In this document: one piece after another, positions 4,567 to 35,802 of the stretch | Numbering within the stretch: position 1 is the first letter of the stretch | Layout of the letters: each line of letters starts with the position of its first letter | IMG/VR virus record: IMGVR_UViG_3300043418_000120 | Coordinates: 96,001 to 160,000 of that record | DNA: 64,000 bases | Strand: one strand, 5' to 3' | Source: a virus | Notes under the pieces: model-generated | What the model was told of the DNA's origin: nothing | The model's database searches: none | The model's input: only the letters and a program-made list of their open reading frames with translations | Made by a program: the position numbers and the translations under genes

Positions 4567-6351
4567 ATGAACAACATCGTATTAAATTACGAGAGAGATG
4601 CTCTCTTTGACGCATTAGGTATTAAGCGTCTTCAAGAGAGCTATATGAAGGAGGACGAAACGTCCCCTCAACAACGCTTTGCTTACGTCTCTTCAATGTT
4701 CGCGACCGACGACGCTCATGCGCAGCGTCTCTATGAACATAGTAGCAAACATTGGCTCTCTTACTCAACACCGATTCTCTCGTTCGGTCGAAGCAAACGT
4801 GGAATGCCTATCTCTTGTTTCCTCAACTATATCGAGGACACAGCTGAAGGTTTGGTAGAGAACTACAGCGAAACCAGCTGGTTGTCTATGATGGGTGGTG
4901 GTGTTGGTATCGGCTTCGGTATCCGTTCAGCCAGCGACAAGTCAACAGGTGTTATGCCTCACTTGAAGACATATGATGCATCGTCTCTTGCTTACAAGCA
5001 AGGTAGCACTCGTCGCGGTTCTTATGCAGCTTATCTAAGTATTGATCATCCTGATATTATCGCATTCCTTGAGATGCGTAAGCCAACAGGCGATCAGAAC
5101 ATGCGTTGTTTGAATCTACACCACGCTATCAATATTCCTGACACATTCATGGAGTTGGTTGAGAAGTGTATGATTGACCCTGATGCTGATGACAGCTGGA
5201 ATTTGGTTGACCCTGCTTCTCATGAAGTTCGTGAAGTTGTTTCTGCTCGCCACCTATGGCAACAGATTCTTGAACTTCGCATGATGACTGGCGAACCATA
5301 CCTACACTTTGTCACAACAAGTAACAAAATGTTACCTCAGTGGTTGAAAGACTTGGGTCTTGTTGTTCACCAATCTAACCTTTGCTCTGAGATTATTCTA
5401 CCAACAAACGAAAAGCGTACTGCTGTTTGTTGCTTGTCTTCATTGAACTTAGAATACTACGACGAGTGGAAGAACGATCCTACTTTCCTACGCGATGTAG
5501 CGGAAATGCTTGACAACGTTCTTCAGTACTTTATTGACAACGCACCTGACACAATCTCTCGCGCTAAGTTCTCCGCTCTGCGTGAACGAAGCATTGGTGT
5601 TGGAGCTCTCGGCTGGCATGCATTCTTACAAAAGAATAACATCCCATGGGAATCCGCAATGGCTGTGGGTCGTAACAAACAAATTTTTAAACACATCAGA
5701 GAGGGTCTTGATCGTGCGAACATGGAACTTGGATCTCTACGAGGCGAAGCGCCTGATGCAAAAGGTACTGGTTACCGCTTTAGTCATCTTATGGCTATCG
5801 CTCCCAATGCTTCTTCTTCCATTCTCATGGGCAATACTTCTCCTAGCGTTGAACCTTTCCGTGCCAATGCTTATCGCCAAGATACTCTATCAGGCTCTTC
5901 GCTAGCAAAGAACAAGTGGCTTGATGTGATCATCAAAGCCGAAGTTGAAAAACATAAGGATGGTTGGTATGAAGAAACATGGTCAAGTATCATTGCGAAT
6001 GATGGTTCAGTACAACATCTGGAATGGATGGACGACTGGACTAAAGACGTATTCAAAACAAGTATGGAGATCGATCAGCGTTGGGTCGTTCAACACGCAG
6101 CCGACCGCCAAGTGTACATTGATCAAGCCCAATCTATCAATCTATTCTTCCGACCTGATGCGCACATTAAATATATCCACGCAGTACACTTTCAAGCATG
6201 GAAATCTGGCTTGAAGACTTTGTACTACTGCCGTTCTGAGAAGATTGGTAAGGCTGATAAAGTGTCGAAGCGTATTGAACGCGAAGTGATGAAAGAAATT
6301 GACTTGCGTGCTCTCGCTGAGGGTGATGCTTGTATTGCTTGCGAGGGTTGA
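4567..6351 (+). CDS. nrdA: Ribonucleotide reductase class I alpha subunit (no ATP cone)
   Basis: SCF, QSNLCSEI, APNASSS, TLYY, C-terminal CIACEG. Confidence 0.95.
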   Translation: MNNIVLNYERDALFDALGIKRLQESYMKEDETSPQQRFAYVSSMFATDDAHAQRLYEHSSKHWLSYSTPILSFGRSKRGMPISCFLNYIEDTAEGLVENYSETSWLSMMGGGVGIGFGIRSASDKSTGVMPHLKTYDASSLAYKQGSTRRGSYAAYLSIDHPDIIAFLEMRKPTGDQNMRCLNLHHAINIPDTFMELVEKCMIDPDADDSWNLVDPASHEVREVVSARHLWQQILELRMMTGEPYLHFVTTSNKMLPQWLKDLGLVVHQSNLCSEIILPTNEKRTAVCCLSSLNLEYYDEWKNDPTFLRDVAEMLDNVLQYFIDNAPDTISRAKFSALRERSIGVGALGWHAFLQKNNIPWESAMAVGRNKQIFKHIREGLDRANMELGSLRGEAPDAKGTGYRFSHLMAIAPNASSSILMGNTSPSVEPFRANAYRQDTLSGSSLAKNKWLDVIIKAEVEKHKDGWYEETWSSIIANDGSVQHLEWMDDWTKDVFKTSMEIDQRWVVQHAADRQVYIDQAQSINLFFRPDAHIKYIHAVHFQAWKSGLKTLYYCRSEKIGKADKVSKRIEREVMKEIDLRALAEGDACIACEG

Positions 6352-26795: not shown

Positions 26796-27098
26796 ATGAA
26801 GAAGTTTCTAGTTTTACTGTTGGTTGGTTTGAGTTTTGCGGCTCAGGCTCAGCATTATCATGGTGATCATTTTCATCGCGGAGCCTACTACAACTGGGCT
26901 GCTCCAGCAATCATTGGTGGTGTTATTGGATACAGTATGGCTCAGCGCCCTACTACTGTAGTTGTCCAACAGCCACCAGTCTACGTTCAACAACAGCCAG
27001 TCTATGTTGATCGTCCAGGTATTCCTTACGGATACCGTTATGAGAATGTATTGGATGCGAACTGTGGCTGCTACCGAGTAGTCCTAGTTCCAAACTAA
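26796..27098 (+). CDS. Secreted/membrane Pro-rich hypothetical protein
   Basis: Signal peptide, APAIIGGVIGY, QQPPVYVQ. Confidence 0.7.
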   Translation: MKKFLVLLLVGLSFAAQAQHYHGDHFHRGAYYNWAAPAIIGGVIGYSMAQRPTTVVVQQPPVYVQQQPVYVDRPGIPYGYRYENVLDANCGCYRVVLVPN

Positions 27099-27403
27099 TT
27101 GTTGTAATCCCTTCAAAGCGAAGGACTTCTGGACGCGGGTTCGACTCCCGCCATCTCCACCACAAGCGCATTGGCGTAGTATGAGTACTCTAAAACTCGA
27201 CTGCGAAAATCTTAGTTCTAGTGTGCTTTTGATGGGGATGCCATGGTTTCGACAGGGGTAGATAGTAGAGACGGCAACACGGTAGGCGATGACCGTTAAT
27301 CAAGCAAATCAAAATAAATGCAAACGAAAGTTCATTTTTGATGGCAGCCTAATCGGCACCATCTGAGTTTCGGTGGGTGTACTTGGAAACAGAAACACCT
27401 ACC
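27099..27403 (+). ncRNA. ssrA: Circularly permuted two-piece tmRNA
   Basis: T arm plus CATCTCC-A-CCA (ends 27162) precedes the 5' strand GGGGATG (27234-27240), with a G3.U70 pair; tag ORF 27320-27352 ANESSFLMAA*; outer ends approximate. Confidence 0.9.
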
Positions 27404-27405
27404 AT

Positions 27406-27413
27406 TATAAATA
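27406..27413 (+). promoter_or_regulatory. T4-type late promoter
   Basis: TATAAATA. Confidence 0.7.
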
Positions 27414-27463
27414 ATTACTTACATCATGAACACACAACTTGATTTACACACACAGGAGTTTAC

Positions 27464-30932: not shown

Positions 30933-31229
30933 ATGATGAATGAAAGACAAACAGAGGTGATGCGAATCGCCCAAGAAGAGTCAGCTGAAATCATCCAAGC
31001 AATCAGTAAGGTTCTGCGTTTCGGTAAAGACAACTGTCATCCAGACAGCACTCAAACGAACGCTGAGCATCTAGCTGAAGAAGTTGGTGACATGCTGTGT
31101 ATGATCGAACTACTGATCGAAACAAAGGTTGTTAGTGAGAGTCAGGTACAGAAGGCTGCGAGGTTGAAGCGCAATAAACTTCGGAAATGGTCAAAAATAT
31201 TTTCCGAAAAAGATGAAAATTGTGCTTGA
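30933..31229 (+). CDS. MazG-like nucleotide pyrophosphohydrolase
   Basis: EESAEIIQAISK...EEVGD. Confidence 0.8.
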   Translation: MMNERQTEVMRIAQEESAEIIQAISKVLRFGKDNCHPDSTQTNAEHLAEEVGDMLCMIELLIETKVVSESQVQKAARLKRNKLRKWSKIFSEKDENCA

Positions 31230-31254
31230 CTGTTATAAATAAAAGAGGTATAAT
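31226..31254 (+). promoter_or_regulatory. sigma70 promoter with embedded late promoter
   Basis: TTGACT-N17-TATAAT with TATAAATA at 31234-31241. Confidence 0.8.
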
Positions 31255-31289
31255 AGATACCTCTAAACGAATTAAGGATTTAATCTTCA

Positions 31290-31409
31290 ATGTTACTCTG
31301 TCAAAGTTATCACCAGCCGATGAAAGCCACTTTGTGGTCTGGAGATACACGCACAGCAGTATCATTCGGCTCAAATCCAGAGATTAGTGTAGGGGTGTTA
31401 GAGGTATAA
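31290..31409 (+). CDS. Putative attenuator leader peptide (39 aa)
   Basis: AAGGA RBS; MLLCQSYHQPMKATLWSGDTRTAVSFGSNPEISVGVLEV; terminator follows. Confidence 0.55.
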   Translation: MLLCQSYHQPMKATLWSGDTRTAVSFGSNPEISVGVLEV

Positions 31410-31434
31410 GAAGTCCAAACTTCAAACCAAAGCG

Positions 31435-31465
31435 CCCCAAGAGATGAAAGTCCTTGGGGTTTTTT
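31435..31465 (+). terminator. Intrinsic terminator (attenuator)
   Basis: CCCCAAG...CTTGGGG-TTTTTT. Confidence 0.8.
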
Positions 31466-31481
31466 GTTTTGTAGCTTGAAT

Positions 31482-31750
31482 AACCTTACAGTTCGTAAGG
31501 TTATCGCTTGACAATAAATTGAATGTCAGGTATAATTGATGTTCTGATGTTGATAAGGTGCTAAAGTTAAAGACCCTACGGTTCGTAAGGTTACTAAAAT
31601 TAGTGCTTGACTTAATTGATGACTTCAGTTATAATTGAGGTTCTGATGTGATGTGCTAAGATTGAAGTGCGAAAATTGCTGAATTGCTATGAACTTCGAA
31701 AATAGTGCTTGACATTATAACAGAAATAAGGTATAATTCTTAGTTCTGAT
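31482..31750 (+). repeat. Three ~100-bp tandem promoter units (31508-31536, 31607-31635, 31709-31737)
   Basis: TTGAC-N-N17-TATAAT each followed by GTTCTGATGT; palindromes before the first two. Confidence 0.8.
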
Positions 31751-31775: not shown

Positions 31776-31850
31776 GCACGATTCGTCTATCGGTTAGGAC
31801 GCTGCCCTTTCAAGGCGGAAAGACGAGTTCGATTCTCGTATCGTGTACCA
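31776..31850 (+). tRNA. tRNA-Glu(TTC)
   Basis: Cloverleaf, loop CTTTCAA, CCA. Confidence 0.9.
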
Positions 31851-32082
31851 TATTAAAGCGTATTGGGTTACCAATACCAGTAGGTGGCTATGATGGTTCG
31901 AAGATGCTCGACGGAGCACGCTGTCATAGTTACAAGAAAGACGGAAACGCCCTTGCGGTGGAAACAGTAGTCGCGCTGGATTAGGTTGGCTTGTAATGTG
32001 TTTGATGACCAGTCGCTAGACGTTAGCGTGGTAAGCCTACGGTGTAGGTTGTTGTCATTCATCCCAGTATGTTTTAATATGG
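31848..32082 (+). ncRNA. Unknown structured RNA closed by a 20-bp stem
   Basis: CCATATTAAAGCGTATTGGG pairs with CCCAGTATGTTTTAATATGG. Confidence 0.55.
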
Positions 32083-32087
32083 TAAAT

Positions 32088-32163
32088 GCGGGTAAGGTGT
32101 TTATGGATACACACGAGTCTTCCAAACTTGAGTAGACCAGATCGTTACTGGCTACCCGCTCCA
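32088..32163 (+). tRNA. tRNA-Gly(TCC)
   Basis: Loop CTTCCAA; T loop ATCGTTA. Confidence 0.85.
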
Positions 32164-32173
32164 TGTTTTGTAT

Positions 32174-32248
32174 ACCCGATTAGCTCAGAGGTAGAGCACT
32201 CGCTTGATAAGCGATAGGTGAGTGGATCGTTACCACTATCGGGTACCA
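32174..32248 (+). tRNA. tRNA-Ile(GAT)
   Basis: Loop TTGATAA. Confidence 0.88.
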
Positions 32249-32253
32249 TGTTT

Positions 32254-32316
32254 TAGGATAGGTTCTGCAAATAACACTGCTAACTTTGGATGTCTAGCGA
32301 CAAAAACTATCCTGTT
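32254..32316 (+). ncRNA. CWGCAA-scaffold RNA copy 1
   Basis: AGGATAG-GTTCTGCAA...CTATCCT-GTT. Confidence 0.7.
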
Positions 32317-32322
32317 GATTTT

Positions 32323-32407
32323 GGAAGTGTAGGAAAATTGGTAACCCCAGGAGACTGTAAATCTTCCGCCTCTGGCATTGTTGGTTCAAGTCCAACCTCT
32401 TCCACCA
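32323..32407 (+). tRNA. tRNA-Tyr(GTA)
   Basis: Loop CTGTAAA, long variable arm. Confidence 0.88.
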
Positions 32408-32540
32408 ATTTCGCTGTCGAGAGGCAGTGATACGTTCCCAACATTAGGGTTGGGCGTGTTAAAGTTCGGGTCTTCACCAGAAGGTCTTTTCGGTTGCCAC
32501 GATAGAGCAACGGCTAAAGTTCGTAATGCCACAAATTCAT

Positions 32541-32616
32541 GCTTCGTTAGCTCAATTGGGAGAGCACTGCACTGTCACTGCAGAGGTAAGGGGATCGAAA
32601 CCCCTACGAGGCGCCA
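32541..32616 (+). tRNA. tRNA-Asp(GTC)
   Basis: Loop CTGTCAC. Confidence 0.9.
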
Positions 32617-32620
32617 ATTT

Positions 32621-32691
32621 TAGGATGAGTTCTGCAACAAAAATAGAACACCAAACTTTTAATTTGACATGTTCGTCAAAATCATCCTGTT
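32621..32691 (+). ncRNA. CWGCAA-scaffold RNA copy 2 (Lys-UUU anticodon loop)
   Basis: AGGATGA-GTTCTGCAA...CAAA-CTTTTAA-TTTG...TCATCCT-GTT. Confidence 0.7.
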
Positions 32692-32697
32692 GTATTT

Positions 32698-32772
32698 GGG
32701 GGCAGTAGAGGGCTACGGGTAACCCTTGCAAGGTTGCTGTCTAGATCGGTTCGATACCGACGGTCTCCACCA
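32698..32772 (+). tRNA. tRNA-Ala(TGC), atypical D arm
   Basis: Loop CTTGCAA; G3.U70; ACCA. Confidence 0.7.
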
Positions 32773-32859
32773 AGAGCAAATAGAAGTCTTGTTTTGATGC
32801 ATGGCTTCTCAATGTTTGTTAGTTTCAATGGGTGTTATAGAAACTACCACTAATTTTAT

Positions 32860-32934
32860 GCCTTGTTAGCTCAGTGGTAGAGCTCCCTCCTTACAAGTGG
32901 GATGTCGGCGGTTCGAACCCGTCACAAGGTACCA
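32860..32934 (+). tRNA. tRNA-Val(TAC)
   Basis: Loop CTTACAA. Confidence 0.88.
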
Positions 32935-32939
32935 AACAT

Positions 32940-33031
32940 GGAAAGTAATGCAGCTGGGATGGTCCGGCGACCAGCCTTGAAAACTGGGTTCTCAGAAATG
33001 GGATGGGGTTCGACTCCTCTGCTTTCCGCCA
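32940..33031 (+). tRNA. tRNA-Ser(TGA), 8/4 fold
   Basis: Loop CTTGAAA; 8-bp acceptor stem, 4-bp T stem; G73. Confidence 0.8.
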
Positions 33032-33036
33032 AAATT

Positions 33037-33111
33037 GCGTTGTAAACTTTGACGATGAAGTCTCGGCTCTTAACCGATGGGAAGATAGTTTGAATCTATC
33101 ACGACGCACCA
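33037..33111 (+). tRNA. tRNA-Lys(CTT), divergent
   Basis: Loop CTCTTAA; T loop TTTGAAT. Confidence 0.7.
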
Positions 33112-33173
33112 AAGCCTCGCCATGACACTCGGCGTATAATGAGATAAGTGATGTGTTCCGAAGATTACTTTGG

Positions 33174-33248
33174 GGTGGGTATAGTGTAGTGGTAGCACCC
33201 AACTCTGTGAAAGTTGTAGTATGGGATCGTTACCCATTATTCACCCCA
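33174..33248 (+). tRNA. tRNA-His(GTG)
   Basis: Loop CTGTGAA; G-1:C73. Confidence 0.85.
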
Positions 33249-33260
33249 AAGTAATTTTGT

Positions 33261-33336
33261 GCCTCTGTAGTTCAACGGATTAGAATACGGTGCTACGAAC
33301 GCTGAGACGGGAGTTCGATTCTCTCCAGAGGTACCA
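33261..33336 (+). tRNA. tRNA-Arg(ACG)
   Basis: Loop CTACGAA. Confidence 0.9.
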
Positions 33337-33347
33337 AAAAGATTTTC

Positions 33348-33421
33348 GCCCTATTAGTATAATGGCATTACACCTGTTTTGTAATCAGGTTACGGCAGTT
33401 CGATTCTGTCATGGGGCACCA
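33348..33421 (+). tRNA. tRNA-Thr(TGT)
   Basis: Loop TTTGTAA. Confidence 0.85.
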
Positions 33422-33430
33422 GTTGACCAT

Positions 33431-33551
33431 TAGGTTCATTTCAGCAATCAAAAATAATCTTTCTGTAAAAAAGAGGGTCTGGGTTCGAATCCCAGCGGTG
33501 AGTTGGTCTTCACTGTGGTGTAATGGTAGCACGAAAAAAGTTGAACCTGTT
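33431..33551 (+). ncRNA. CWGCAA-scaffold RNA copy 3 (fully permuted tRNA with GUA anticodon)
   Basis: AGGTTCA-TTTCAGCAA, anticodon arm, T arm, closed acceptor stem, D arm, TGAACCT-GTT. Confidence 0.8.
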
Positions 33552-33557
33552 TAACAT

Positions 33558-33632
33558 ATCGCATTCGACTTCAGGTGAGGTCATCAGCCTTTCAAGCTGA
33601 CTAGACGGGATCGTTACCCGTATGCGATACCA
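33558..33632 (+). tRNA. tRNA-Glu(TTC) copy 2
   Basis: Loop CTTTCAA; T loop ATCGTTA. Confidence 0.85.
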
Positions 33633-33640
33633 AGAATTAT

Positions 33641-33719
33641 TCCGTAGAATCCAAGCAAGGTGCAAGGACGTGACTGTTAATCACTGATTAGACTGGTTCG
33701 ATCCCAGTGTACGGAGCCA
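33641..33719 (+). tRNA. tRNA-Asn(GTT), atypical D arm
   Basis: Loop CTGTTAA; GCCA. Confidence 0.75.
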
Positions 33720-33872
33720 GTATTAGTCGGAGTAATTAACCGAAAAGTAAATAGTAGACGATCTCGCCATCTCGGTCGTCTTTGCAGTGTATACTGCGTC
33801 AGCTTGGTTGCACAAGTTGAGAAACACTGGGGTAAGAGTCCCAATTGATCGATGTGCACTAATTGTTTTCGT

Positions 33873-33948
33873 GGGGGTATAGCTCATCTGGTAGAGCAGG
33901 TGCTTTGCAAGCATCAGGTGGCGGGTTCGAGTCCTGTTGCCTCCACCA
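33873..33948 (+). tRNA. tRNA-Ala(TGC)
   Basis: Canonical; loop TTTGCAA. Confidence 0.92.
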
Positions 33949-33957
33949 AGTTTTTAT

Positions 33958-34031
33958 CTGGGTATAAGATAGTGGTAGTCTCCGAGCCTTGGATGCTTGA
34001 AGCGGGAGTTCGATTCTCCATTCCCAGACCA
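33958..34031 (+). tRNA. tRNA-Pro(TGG), divergent
   Basis: Loop CTTGGAT. Confidence 0.75.
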
Positions 34032-34040
34032 ATTTTTTGT

Positions 34041-34118
34041 TGGGGTATCGCCTAGTCTGGCCTAAGGCAACGGTCTTTGAAATCGTCATCATCAGTTCGA
34101 ATCTGATTACCCCTGCCA
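34041..34118 (+). tRNA. tRNA-Gln(TTG)
   Basis: Loop CTTTGAA. Confidence 0.88.
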
Positions 34119-34181
34119 GTTTTTAAGGAAATTCAAAATGAAAGTATTAAAACGAAAACCCCGAAAGTGTCGAAAGCGCAT

Positions 34182-34258
34182 GGGTCTATAGTTTAACGGC
34201 AAAAACATCTGGCTTTTAACCAGTAAGACTCTCGGTTCGAATCCGAGTAGACCCACCA
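34182..34258 (+). tRNA. tRNA-Lys(TTT)
   Basis: Loop CTTTTAA. Confidence 0.88.
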
Positions 34259-34359
34259 TATAAAAACATACTTGCTGAAGTTGGTTCAGTTAGACAGGGA
34301 GATCCAATTGCCTATGTCGTTGAGTGTGTTTTTATATGGTATATAAGTATATACTACAT

Positions 34360-34434
34360 TCCAGTGTAGCACAGCGGTAGTGCAGTTGACTGTTAATCAA
34401 TTGGTCGTTGGTTCGATCCCAGCCACTGGAGCCA
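34360..34434 (+). tRNA. tRNA-Asn(GTT) copy 2
   Basis: Canonical; loop CTGTTAA. Confidence 0.92.
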
Positions 34435-34443
34435 AATTTTTAT

Positions 34444-34517
34444 AGCGGGTAGGGTGGTCACCACTCCAGTCTCATAAGCTCGGAGCATCGGCAGTTCGAA
34501 TCTGTCACCCGCATCCA
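34444..34517 (+). tRNA. tRNA(CAT), atypical, 1-72 mismatch (initiator-like)
   Basis: Loop CTCATAA; A1/A72; reduced D arm. Confidence 0.65.
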
Positions 34518-34521
34518 TTTT

Positions 34522-34580
34522 TAGGATCCGTCCAGCAAATTACCTAATTCAACTTGTAATTGAAAAATAAGGATCCTGTT
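34522..34580 (+). ncRNA. CWGCAA-scaffold RNA copy 4 (Thr-UGU anticodon arm)
   Basis: AGGATCC-GTCCAGCAA...TTCAA-CTTGTAA-TTGAA...GGATCCT-GTT. Confidence 0.75.
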
Positions 34581-34587
34581 GATATTT

Positions 34588-34663
34588 GCCCTTATAGCTC
34601 ATCTGGTAGAGCAACCGCCTTGTAAGCGGTAGGTGGTCAGTTCGAGTCCGACTGAGGGCACCA
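34588..34663 (+). tRNA. tRNA-Thr(TGT) copy 2
   Basis: Loop CTTGTAA. Confidence 0.92.
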
Positions 34664-34671
34664 TTTATAAT

Positions 34672-34748
34672 CGGAATGTAGCGCAGTCTGGTAGCGCACC
34701 TCGTTTGGGACGAGGGGGTCCAAGGTTCGAATCCTTGTATTCCGACCA
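34672..34748 (+). tRNA. tRNA-Pro(TGG) copy 2
   Basis: Canonical; loop TTTGGGA. Confidence 0.93.
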
Positions 34749-34765
34749 ACACTTTGAAAGATAAC

Positions 34766-35029
34766 ATGACAACAATTAACCCTATTAAGAACAACTTGTA
34801 CATTGCTCAGAACAAGAAAGAAGATACCACTGAGATGGGCATCATTATTTCTAATGGTCTTGGTAACACTGCCTCTGCGTATGTGTTGGCTATTGGTCCT
34901 GACATTACAGAATGTAAAGTAGGTGATACAGTTTATGTTGACTGGTCAAAGAGTTACCCAGTAACTATTGACGGTGCGCAGCGTGCGATGATCAAGATTG
35001 ATCATGTGATTGCTGTCGTTGAAGAATAA
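34766..35029 (+). CDS. groES: GroES-like co-chaperonin
   Basis: INPIKNNLYI, TEMGIII mobile loop, VLAIGP...KVGDTV. Confidence 0.8.
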   Translation: MTTINPIKNNLYIAQNKKEDTTEMGIIISNGLGNTASAYVLAIGPDITECKVGDTVYVDWSKSYPVTIDGAQRAMIKIDHVIAVVEE

Positions 35030-35030
35030 T

Positions 35031-35106
35031 CTCGCCATGGTCTAACGGATAAGGCAACGGTCTTCTACACCGTCCGATGGGAGTTCGAATCTCTCTGGCG
35101 AGGCCA
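35031..35106 (+). tRNA. tRNA-Arg(TCT)
   Basis: Loop CTTCTAC. Confidence 0.88.
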
Positions 35107-35113
35107 AAGATTT

Positions 35114-35219
35114 TAGGTTAGGTTCTGCAAACAAAATTAGCTGGTTCGATTCCAGCATTATCCACCCAGTCGAAAGACACTCGGATGATGTGCCACGGTG
35201 GCAATCAAACTAACCTGTT
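35114..35219 (+). ncRNA. CWGCAA-scaffold RNA copy 5 (T arm-acceptor-D-like arm)
   Basis: AGGTTAG-GTTCTGCAA; GCTGG-TTCGATT-CCAGC; ATTATCC/GGATGAT; CTAACCT-GTT. Confidence 0.78.
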
Positions 35220-35228
35220 GTATTATAA

Positions 35229-35305
35229 GCGGATGTGATGGAATTGGTATACGTGTTGGTCTTAGAAGCCAAATTTTGTGAGTTCGAGTCTCACCATCCG
35301 CACCA
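35229..35305 (+). tRNA. tRNA-Leu(TAG), short variable loop
   Basis: Loop CTTAGAA. Confidence 0.85.
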
Positions 35306-35316
35306 ATTTTTTTTAT

Positions 35317-35392
35317 GCCTGGATAGCTCAGTTGGTAGAGCGGCAGATTGAAAATCTGCGCGTCGGCGGTTCGATCCCGTCTCTAGGCACCA
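35317..35392 (+). tRNA. tRNA-Phe(GAA)
   Basis: Loop TTGAAAA. Confidence 0.92.
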
Positions 35393-35398
35393 GTTTAT

Positions 35399-35475
35399 TA
35401 CGGAGTAGTTCCAATTGGCAGAACGGCGGATTCCAAATCCGTTAGTTGGGGGTTCGAGTCCCTCCTCCGTAGCCA
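35399..35475 (+). tRNA. tRNA-Trp(CCA)
   Basis: Loop TTCCAAA. Confidence 0.88.
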
Positions 35476-35481
35476 GATTAT

Positions 35482-35557
35482 GGTGATGTAGCTCAGTTGG
35501 CAGAGCAGCTCCTTCATACGGAGACGGTCGGGAGCTCGGATCTCTCCATCACCACCA
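35482..35557 (+). tRNA. tRNA-Met(CAT)
   Basis: Loop TTCATAC; unusual T loop CTCGGAT. Confidence 0.75.
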
Positions 35558-35717
35558 AGTTTTGAGATAGACGTTTGGATGAGTCCCTTATGTGCTAGTG
35601 CCCTATTCTTGAGCATGACACACCAGTAGCGGCATAAGGTTGTTAAACTCTCCTATACGAGACAAGCCCAGCGAGTCCTTGAGAAAGATAGTTGGAACTC
35701 TCAAAAACCTATAATAT

Positions 35718-35791
35718 GCGTGTGTAGTTTAATGGTAAAATCAGACGTTGCCAACGTTTAGTTGAGAGTTCGATTCTCTCCACCCGCACCA
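35718..35791 (+). tRNA. tRNA-Gly(GCC)
   Basis: Loop TTGCCAA. Confidence 0.85.
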
Positions 35792-35802
35792 AACATAGTC
35801 AT

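Follow-up and report, generated by a model that had tools for sequence, protein, structure and literature searches.

A phage RNA that probably carries a permuted, sealed tRNA mimic on a Y-RNA-like handle

Y RNAs that mimic transfer RNA (tRNA) and combine a T arm ahead of the D arm with a sealed acceptor end have been on record since 2014 (PMC4201824). An RNA element of 121 nucleotides (nt) with a comparable layout, located at 33431-33551 on the plus strand of a stretch of the IMG/VR phage genome IMGVR_UViG_3300043418_000120, was analysed here and compared with the described systems. The stretch, called the window below, comprises 64,000 nt (bases 96001-160000 of the 173,880-bp genome; CheckV completeness 100%), and positions refer to it unless stated otherwise. 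The element, named copy 3 after its place among the related RNAs of the window, is very probably a Y-RNA-like handle that carries a tRNA mimic as its cargo.

The YrlA RNAs were defined by a 5' GNCGAAN0-1G motif that binds Rsr, by the succession of T arm, closed acceptor-like stem and D arm, and by an adjoining Ro60/TROVE gene, and in many of them the T arm is preceded by a fourth stem-loop, 'V' (Chen et al. 2014, PMC4201824). With YrlA (RF02553; PMC4201824; Wang et al. 2018, 10.1101/312249), copy 3 shares a terminal helix with a putative protein-binding motif on the 5' strand, the optional stem-loop, the order of T arm, closed acceptor-like stem and D arm, and the lack of a free CCA; in both, the tRNA tertiary nucleotides are conserved and the Levitt 15:48 pair covaries. 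It differs in the handle motif, which is UUUCAGCAA and not GNCGAAN0-1G, in its single-stranded A-rich linkers, where Salmonella YrlA has a kinked 'anticodon stem', and in the extra stem-loop, which has the exact geometry of an anticodon arm (5 bp, 7-nt CU-NNN-AA loop and 4-nt variable loop). No TROVE (PF05731) gene was found in the 173,880-bp genome; instead, a DUF2828 protein, a paralogue with a predicted Ro60 fold, is encoded 7.3 kb downstream.

The handle resembles the Dictyostelium Class I RNAs (RF01414), which are ~60 nt long, have a 6-bp covarying terminal stem, an 11-nt single-stranded motif and a 3' CUGU, were reported as restricted to dictyostelids, and have the RRM protein Rnp1A as known direct binder (Kjellin et al. 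2021, PMC7919456). Shared features are the short compensatory terminal stem, the 3' CUGU, a single-stranded motif beside the 5' strand (CCUUACAGCAA in the amoebae, n-UUUCAGCAA or UUACAGCAA in the phages) and an A/U-rich variable interior, and the short phage family members are also ~60 nt. Copy 3 differs in that it is a phage RNA of 121 nt with a whole tRNA body, compared to 42-65 nt in the amoeba.

Permuted tRNA genes are known in Cyanidioschyzon merolae, some green algae and Thermofilum (see 10.1101/312249). In genes of the C. merolae type, as in copy 3, the 5' part of the tRNA comes after the 3' part in the encoded order, but there a splicing endonuclease cuts a bulge-helix-bulge motif to yield chargeable tRNAs, whereas enzyme and motif are absent in the phage, the junction of copy 3 lies at 26/27 and its acceptor end is capped. 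The transfer-messenger RNA (tmRNA) of the window (27038-27443) is likewise a permuted tRNA-like RNA of phage/bacterial origin. It has a CCA end, is charged with alanine and has no anticodon arm, whereas copy 3 is sealed and keeps an anticodon-type arm; the tmRNA design, with encoded CCA and spacer, is that of the subfamily represented by another related RNA of the window, copy 5.

Two phage systems bear on the possible role. The PARIS nuclease AriB cuts tRNA-Lys, Thr and Asn (PMC12409363), and is neutralised by the tRNA-Lys, Thr and Asn of phage T5 (PMC11464382, PMC12409363). Such anti-nuclease tRNAs and the RNAs described here are both encoded in arrays and present the anticodon loops of nuclease targets; the former, however, are functional, chargeable, cleavage-resistant replacements of host tRNAs, whereas copy 3, as encoded, can have no part in translation. 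In the Felix O1-like phage Bas63, the Ro60-like protein gp130 counters the Ppl defence. Its gene lies directly upstream of a tRNA array, and the authors suggested that some of the 'tRNAs' are Y RNAs (10.1101/2024.10.10.617714). No RNA partner was identified there; gp130 resembles the window protein in being a phage protein of Ro60 fold.

The permuted tRNA body and its covariation

The RNA is closed by an 8-bp terminal helix, of which the 5' strand TAGGTTCA (33431..33438) pairs with 33542-33549; the 3' strand TGAACCTG and a conserved TT tail occupy 33542..33551 (family ...CCTGTT). Next to the 5' strand lies the handle motif TTTCAGCAA (33439..33447; family consensus nTYCWGCAA or TTACAGCAA), in which C, A, G, C, A and A are invariant in one alignment (A1) and which aligns to the 11-nt motif of Rfam RF01414. 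It is followed by the linker TCAAAAATAA (33448..33457), A-rich in all copies and unable to pair with the 3' linker AAAAAAGT (33534..33541), a conserved A-rich stretch as well. Between the linkers stand an anticodon-type arm with a 5-bp stem TCTTT/AAAGA and a 7-nt loop CTGTAAA (33458..33474), a variable loop GGGT corresponding to tRNA positions 44, 45, 46 and 48 (33475..33478), the T arm CTGGG-TTCGAAT-CCCAG (33479..33495), a sealed 7-bp acceptor arm (33496..33515, with CGGTGAG at 33496-33502, the cap TTGGTC at 33503-33508 and TTCACTG at 33509-33515) and, finally, positions 8-9 (TG), the D arm GTGT-AATGGTA-GCAC and G26 (33516..33533, D arm at 33518-33532), all on the plus strand. An earlier note on this DNA had described these arms, and each was found in its place, the anticodon-type, T, acceptor and D arms being enclosed by the 8-bp helix. 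As it had also stated, the sealed acceptor end lacks a CCA after its 3' strand, and the RNA is therefore not chargeable as encoded.

The sequence was un-permuted by a script that joined 33509-33533 to 33458-33502. ARAGORN called the result a 71-nt tRNA-Tyr(gta) with all four junction variants, which bears out the description of a complete tRNA-shaped module in permuted order; in native order the element was not called. The Rfam tRNA model aligned 33438-33495, in native order, to its positions 9-63 and took the hairpin as anticodon arm, followed by a 4-nt variable loop and the T arm. At gathering thresholds no Rfam family matched the element, and up to E=10 only sub-threshold tRNA, mascRNA and Dictyostelium Class I matches were obtained. 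All five helices were recovered by RNAfold.

Blastn with the 136-nt gap that the element occupies between its neighbouring tRNA genes detected the permuted order in Enterococcus, Bacillus, Vibrio, Synechococcus and Streptomyces phages as well. A covariance model was built from 14 such sequences with the five-helix structure. At E<=0.01 it picked up 244 handle RNAs within the ~1 Mb of loci retrieved, and it also found 45 full-length relatives with a tRNA body (41 distinct sequences). Over the 41 sequences, 92.7% of cells were paired, compared to 63% in column shuffles and 38-46% with slid partners; fitting the alignment to the model biases it in favour of the structure, but the margin over the controls is large. 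Covariation was seen in all five helices. Double changes occurred at 25 of the 28 pairs, including every pair (5/5) of the anticodon-type helix, every pair (8/8) of the terminal helix, in which 97.6% of cells were paired, and four of the five pairs of the T arm, in which 99% were paired and the loop GTTCGA..C was invariant. The D stem was paired throughout (100%), U8 was present in 40/41 and A14 in 41/41 sequences, and G18/G19 were kept, with G19 invariant. A chance origin of the hairpin in A/T-rich DNA was considered and ruled out by its covariation and its conservation in orthologues.

The last base of the four that follow the hairpin was compared with D-loop position 15 (Levitt 15:48), giving A:T 23 times, T:A nine times, G:C four times and five mismatches. 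Because this base covaries with position 15, the four nucleotides act as variable-loop positions 44-48, and the hairpin in front of them thus sits at the place of the anticodon stem's end. This agrees with the placement of the opening of the chain between the D and anticodon arms in the earlier note; more precisely, it lies between position 26 and the anticodon-type stem.

A second scan of the sequence collection, using the frame of hairpin and T arm, yielded 26 distinct orthologues. Their stem xCTTT/AAAGA, loop positions CT (32-33) and AA (37-38), variable loop, T arm and D arm are essentially fixed, the cap TTGGTC is identical in most of them, and the 7-bp acceptor stem covaries (e.g. CGCGGAG/TTCCGTG and CACTAGG/TCTAGTG). 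The triplet at the anticodon position is GTA in 5, GAA in 5, GGA in 4, TAG in 3, GTC in 3, GCG in 2, and GCA, GCT, ATG and ACG in one each; its middle base takes all four nucleotides and is, by per-column entropy, the most variable unpaired position.

Bacterial tRNA-Tyr is of class II. The phage's own tRNA-Tyr, of 85 nt, belongs to this class, whereas the body of copy 3, with its 4-nt variable loop, is of class I. A long variable arm, a free CCA and a conserved GUA, the marks of a functional bacterial-type tRNA-Tyr, are all missing. The tyrosine identity that had been proposed for the RNA therefore did not hold up for the family, since GTA is found in only 5/26 orthologues and the body is of the wrong class. 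The term 'tRNA-Tyr mimic' fits the window copy alone, because the triplet varies and the body is class I; judged by the aligned orthologues, the trait of the family is an anticodon-loop frame with a free triplet.

The handle family and the co-occurring Ro-type proteins

Repeat finding and reading of the gaps between the tRNA genes revealed eight handle copies in the window. They share a layout in which nTYCWGCAA and an A-rich linker follow the 5' strand of the terminal helix, a second A-rich linker precedes the 3' strand and GUU stands after it, and the stem sequences vary between copies in a fully compensatory manner. A degenerate pattern of the handle matched at least 120 IMG/VR contigs. The motif UUUCAGCAA agrees with the 11-nt Class I motif CCUUACAGCAA at 8 of the last 9 positions, including all five near-invariant ones (U3, C6, C9, A10 and A11). 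RF01414 scored copy 3 with 19.2 bits and copy 4 with 23.5 bits, compared to a gathering threshold of 41.5, and the alignments cover the stem, the ..UUACAGCAA motif, the A-rich interior and the 3' CUG.

A 479-aa protein with DUF2828 and DUF7788 (40854..42293, plus strand; Pfam E 3.9e-22 and 5.1e-47) is the handle's presumed partner. Its closest GenBank relative, with 48% identity, is from the T4-like Synechococcus phage BUCT-ZZ01. An alignment of 126 sequences showed the vWA metal ion-dependent adhesion site residues DxSxS, T and D to be invariant. From this alignment, AlphaFold2 predicted a Ro60-like ring with a vWA domain (pLDDT 93.8, pTM 0.92); a single-sequence model (pLDDT 41.7) was discarded. 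In a Foldseek search against the PDB, the top 12 listed matches comprised Xenopus/human Ro60, Deinococcus Rsr, Thermus phage phiLo Ro60 and a TROVE domain, with full-length alignments of ~510-570 columns and TM-scores of 0.47-0.63, followed by a sharp fall to vWA-only matches. Ro60/TROVE chains also ranked first in a sequence profile search of the PDB (E=0.012), a weak match that is supportive only alongside the fold search. According to the retained model and the fold search, the DUF2828 protein has a Ro60 fold. Homologues occur in 711 GenBank phage records from many host phyla, including Felixounavirus records, and some are annotated as 'Ro-like RNA binding protein'.

The association of handles with proteins was evaluated across genomes. 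A CAGCAA handle was accompanied by a DUF2828 protein (~480 aa) in all 14 genomes tested, namely the window, four GenBank phages (Enterococcus, Bacillus, Vibrio and Synechococcus) and nine large IMG/VR contigs; TROVE was sought in five of these, the window and the four GenBank phages, and was found in none. T4, which is without the handle, is also without DUF2828. Three of the 26 orthologues (L137, L144 and L151) have the hairpin stem and T arm of copy 3 with GCCGAACG on the 5' strand instead of CAGCAA, and in their IMG/VR contigs a TROVE gene lies within ~1-10 kb and DUF2828 is absent. Similarly, in the Streptomyces phage TunaTartare an RNA with a GGTCGGATG handle and the loop CTGTGAA is situated 0.7 kb upstream of a gene annotated as coding for a Ro-like protein. 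For copy-3-type cargo on a GNCGAA handle, TROVE was present and DUF2828 absent in 4/4 cases. Because of the 14/14 CAGCAA-DUF2828 and 4/4 GNCGAA-TROVE pairings, handle type predicts the type of Ro-family protein.

The three orthologues just named are canonical YrlA-type RNAs with an anticodon-type arm and the loop CUGUCAA. A second Y-like RNA was seen in TunaTartare and in the Bacillus phage PBC2 (L122:419-534 and L125:1084-1212), and the PBC2 record labels one Y-like RNA region a tRNA pseudogene.

The contrast with YrlA drawn in the earlier note, according to which the element, unlike YrlA, has kept its anticodon arm, has to be withdrawn, as the hairpin corresponds to the 'V' stem-loop of Chen et al. 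and the same hairpin is found on GNCGAA handles beside TROVE. By sequence comparison, the cargo of copy 3 is homologous to the tRNA-like domain of YrlA-type Y RNAs and is mounted on a different handle for a different Ro paralogue. Since this cargo is common to GNCGAA/TROVE and CAGCAA/DUF2828 RNAs, the element was classified as a YrlA-type tRNA mimic with another docking handle.

The eight copies, all on the plus strand, differ in their cargo. Copy 1 (32253..32318) has a short one, a small hairpin, and copy 2 (32620..32695) a small-hairpin cargo that includes CAAA-CTTTTAA-TTTG, with a Lys-UUU-type loop. Copy 3 (33431..33551) is the 121-nt RNA with the tRNA body. The cargo of copy 4 (34522..34584), again no more than a small hairpin, is able to form TTCAA-CTTGTAA-TTGAA, with a Thr-UGU-type loop, although the minimum free energy structure given by RNAfold favours another hairpin over it. 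Copy 5 (35113..35222) has a T arm, an acceptor stem with spacer and a D-like hairpin, and no anticodon-type arm, and copy 6 (37265..37491) a T arm, an extended acceptor helix with a ~100-nt insert and a canonical D arm. Copies 7 and 8 (40303..40812) stand directly upstream of the DUF2828 gene with consensus promoters of their own (40264 and 40594). Copies 2, 3 and 4 have the same loops as the tRNA-Lys, the tRNA-Tyr and one tRNA-Thr encoded by the phage itself. Among 114 distinct short family members, which carry bare hairpins, 59 have a 7-nt loop, with U33 in 53/59 and A37 in 53/59; the commonest loops are CTTGTAA (14; Thr-UGU), CTTTTAA (9; Lys-UUU) and CTGTTAA (7; Asn-GUU). In other subfamilies the acceptor stem is closed by tetraloops.

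In the orthologues of copy 5 (L014, L106, L098, L030, L052 and L004), the acceptor 3' strand is followed by N-CCA, a 7-20-nt spacer and the acceptor 5' strand, a permuted two-piece design that, from its sequence, would have a free CCA end after an RNase P cut. The window copy has ACCC where they have NCCA, and a GCCA-CGG-TGGC hairpin in the place of the D arm. Blastn with copy 5 against GenBank phages gave chance-level matches only. The classic stable RNAs of the T4 tRNA cluster, rnaC and rnaD, were also read, and do not carry the handle. Short 'hypothetical protein' open reading frames (ORFs) annotated in GenBank on the opposite strand overlie handle RNAs (L121 1526-1756 and L124 1501-1602) and are probably spurious gene calls.

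Possible function and competing explanations

The account that is on balance favoured comprises a stable handle RNA, its binding by DUF2828, the sealed tRNA mimic and a role in tRNA conflict. A stable RNA of ~120 nt would be released from a polycistronic tRNA transcript as the flanking tRNAs are processed. Its first module would serve as docking handle, with the 8-bp terminal helix, the single-stranded UUUCAGCAA, the A-rich linkers and the 3' CUGUU, and would bind the Ro60-like DUF2828 protein in the way the stem of Y RNA binds Ro60. The second module, the cargo, is a complete L-shaped permuted tRNA body into which the handle enters between position 26 and the anticodon-type stem, with its acceptor end closed by the conserved UUGGUC cap, so presenting the anticodon arm, the elbow and the D/T core to factors that recognise tRNA. 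The RNA could then take part in phage-host tRNA conflict as decoy, sponge or sensor for anticodon nucleases or tRNA-binding defence proteins, with the triplet free to change.

In favour of the last step, the loop is fixed except for its triplet, which varies more than any other unpaired site. The bare hairpin as minimal cargo, the agreement of the commonest loops with the tRNAs cut by AriB, the identity of the loops of copies 2-4 with those of phage tRNAs and the action of the Bas63 protein against Ppl point to factors that read anticodons. A decoy or sensor role is nevertheless put forward tentatively, at rather less than an even chance, since the supporting points are correlations among related, A/T-rich sequences. 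More doubtful still is an extension in which the DUF2828 ring serves as a programmable display of anticodon-loop mimics, either as bare stem-loops or as the sealed tRNA body of copy 3.

Several observations weigh against parts of this account. The minimum free energy structure from RNAfold has the hairpin in a 6-bp register shifted by one base, with -30.5 compared to -27.0 kcal/mol for the cloverleaf register, and in this model the shift can abolish the anticodon-like loop. The corresponding hairpin of a second subfamily, with its loop of 5-6 nt, is closer to a variable arm, so that the label 'anticodon arm' is not valid family-wide. RF02553 (gathering threshold 69 bits) did not match 33425-33556 even at E=10; its matches elsewhere in the window were dismissed, as they merely span adjacent tRNA pairs. 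The DUF2828 gene lies 7.3 kb from copy 3, and handle and DUF2828 were seen together in genomes that are related or were picked by hand; such co-occurrence is no proof of contact. The agreement with the PARIS target set consists of counts of related sequences in an A/T-rich context, and the variation of the triplet may reflect a lack of constraint and not diversifying selection. Moreover, gp130 expressed on its own, with no phage RNAs present, was active against Ppl, a defence that is not known to cleave tRNA (10.1101/2024.10.10.617714).

The main functional alternative to a decoy or sensor is a tether for RNA quality control or repair, in which the cargo recruits a tRNA-binding enzyme (exoribonuclease, repair or modification enzyme) to the Ro-like ring, as in Rsr/YrlA/PNPase, and the particle degrades or repairs damaged tRNAs and rRNAs during infection, or the anticodon-type loop captures, through loop-loop pairing, tRNAs whose anticodons are complementary to it. 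Bacterial Y RNAs have this as their established role (PMC4201824; 10.1101/312249), the elbow nucleotides are the most conserved part, and genes for a phosphatase, a metallophosphoesterase, an RNase H-like and a radical SAM protein lie in or around the array, with an Rnl2-type ligase in the genome. The bare anticodon-type hairpin as minimal cargo and the variation of the triplet are, however, left unexplained by it, RtcB is absent from the phage genome, and we regard a tether as doubtful. It is unlikely that the RNA becomes a two-piece, CCA-bearing tRNA-like molecule through an RNase P cut 5' of 33509, trimming of the cap and addition of CCA by a host enzyme, with the fragments held together by the acceptor stem, tertiary contacts and the terminal helix. 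The acceptor stem is exactly 7 bp in the orthologues, a length that Chen et al. take to determine RNase P cleavage, and YrlA of M. smegmatis is cleaved and gains CCA in vivo (PMC4201824); the copy-5 subfamily has a clear two-piece design (N-CCA, spacer, acceptor 5' strand), and the phage carries a permuted tmRNA. The cap UUGGUC, on the other hand, contains no CC and its sequence is kept from freshwater T4-like phages through to those of Enterococcus and Vibrio (UUGGUA[C/U]), which argues for a functional closed cap; tetraloops close the stem in other subfamilies, the phage has no CCA-adding enzyme, and every true tRNA encodes CCA.

Maturation into a real tRNA is very improbable, given the missing CCA (encoded by 29/29 neighbours), the conserved cap and the missing splicing endonuclease. 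A true permuted pre-tRNA-Tyr would have to be circularised or ligated at 26/27, lose the handle and open its acceptor end, as in C. merolae. ARAGORN accepts the un-permuted order as tRNA-Tyr, the phage's own tRNA-Tyr has the same loop, and an Rnl2-type ligase is encoded. Yet no tRNA splicing endonuclease (PF01974) was found in the phage genome, and the ends of the RNA do not make a bulge-helix-bulge but pair in an 8-bp helix adjoined by single strands of 19 and 9 nt. The supposed intron is the most conserved part and is common to 60-nt RNAs without a tRNA body, close orthologues differ in the triplet, the body belongs to class I and CCA is lacking. The suggestion of a precursor needing ligation and re-cutting, made in the earlier note, thus finds little to stand on, as cap and handle are conserved, no splicing endonuclease is present and the handle carries bare hairpins as well. 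Least credible of all is an inert by-product of recombination, in which the 3' half of one tandem tRNA gene was fused to the 5' half of the next. An origin from dimeric tRNA is the published model for YrlA (Sim and Wolin 2018, as cited in 10.1101/312249), and the element does lie inside a dense tRNA array, but compensatory changes in every helix, in phages of Gram-positive, Gram-negative and cyanobacterial hosts, exclude recombination debris; in addition, the handle is invariant and the cap conserved, and the element is neither absent nor decayed in close relatives.

Genome setting and meaning for Y RNAs

The array on the plus strand (31776-38091) contains 29 tRNA genes according to ARAGORN, and all 29 encode CCA. 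Four tandem consensus sigma-70-type promoters (31226..31737, plus strand) stand ahead of the tRNAs and handle RNAs, and a terminator-like site follows the array led by them at 35804-35822. The element fills the gap between the end of tRNA-Thr (33421) and the start of tRNA-Glu (33558). The permuted two-piece tmRNA (27038-27443) was called by ARAGORN and scored well above threshold with the Rfam models tmRNA_permuted and beta_tmRNA; its tag peptide is ANESSFLMAA.

Four extra tRNA-like genes with T arms and encoded CCA (32698-32772, 32940-33027, 33033-33111 and 33641-33719) were missed by ARAGORN and the Rfam tRNA model, and their D arms are odd; one is Ser-/Sec-like at 33 bits and one has an Asn GTT-type loop. 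In Gly-UCC (32088-32163), Ile-GAU (32174-32248), His-GUG (33175-33248) and Glu-UUC (33558-33632) the T loop is ATCGTTA and not TTCGAAT. This would turn the reverse-Hoogsteen pair T54:A58 into A54:U58, a possible escape route from enzymes directed at the T loop. Within the 160-nt spacer 35558-35717, the block GAGATAGACGTTTGGAT..AGTCCCTT.TG.GCTAG is kept in phage contig L091 (~5050-5110) beside a handle RNA, and probably represents one more structured RNA without annotation; two further gaps (31851-32087 and 32408-32540) look structured too.

A DSP/PTP-type phosphatase, a calcineurin-like metallophosphoesterase, an RNase H-like PF04308 protein and a 495-aa radical SAM protein are encoded in or beside the array (35859-36936 and 38105-40256), and an Rnl2-type RNA ligase elsewhere in the phage genome (C1:44694-45188). 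Together these genes suggest an island for RNA repair or modification. Searches of the phage genome for TROVE, RtcB, Rnl1, tRNA splicing endonuclease (PF01974) and a CCA-adding enzyme found none, the Rnl1 result being weak, as no control genome gave a match either.

Compared with the YrlA RNAs, what is new here is the different handle with its Ro paralogue, the swap of handles on homologous cargo, the anticodon-arm geometry and the hypervariable triplet. YrlA had shown that partners of Ro60 can mimic tRNA, with the purpose of the tRNA-shaped part remaining obscure, and copy 3 adds to that. One cargo on two docking handles amounts to a natural swap experiment, which makes the code between handle and protein directly testable. 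The 'fourth stem-loop', being an exact anticodon arm in which only the three bases at the anticodon position change from one close relative to the next, turns the search for an effector toward readers of the anticodon loop. Such RNAs also escape or mislead tRNA finders, and the gaps in which they lie are given spurious small ORFs.

A full tRNA mimic is hereby tied to a family whose handle matches the Class I RNAs, so far reported only from social amoebae and with no known function. If the DUF2828 ring does act as a programmable display, the triplets would evolve quickly to match the tRNAs hit by host anticodon nucleases such as PARIS AriB, PrrC and retron-linked nucleases, and the particle would sponge, sense or neutralise these enzymes. 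The orphan Class I RNAs of Dictyostelium would then be the Y-type RNAs of a Ro paralogue.

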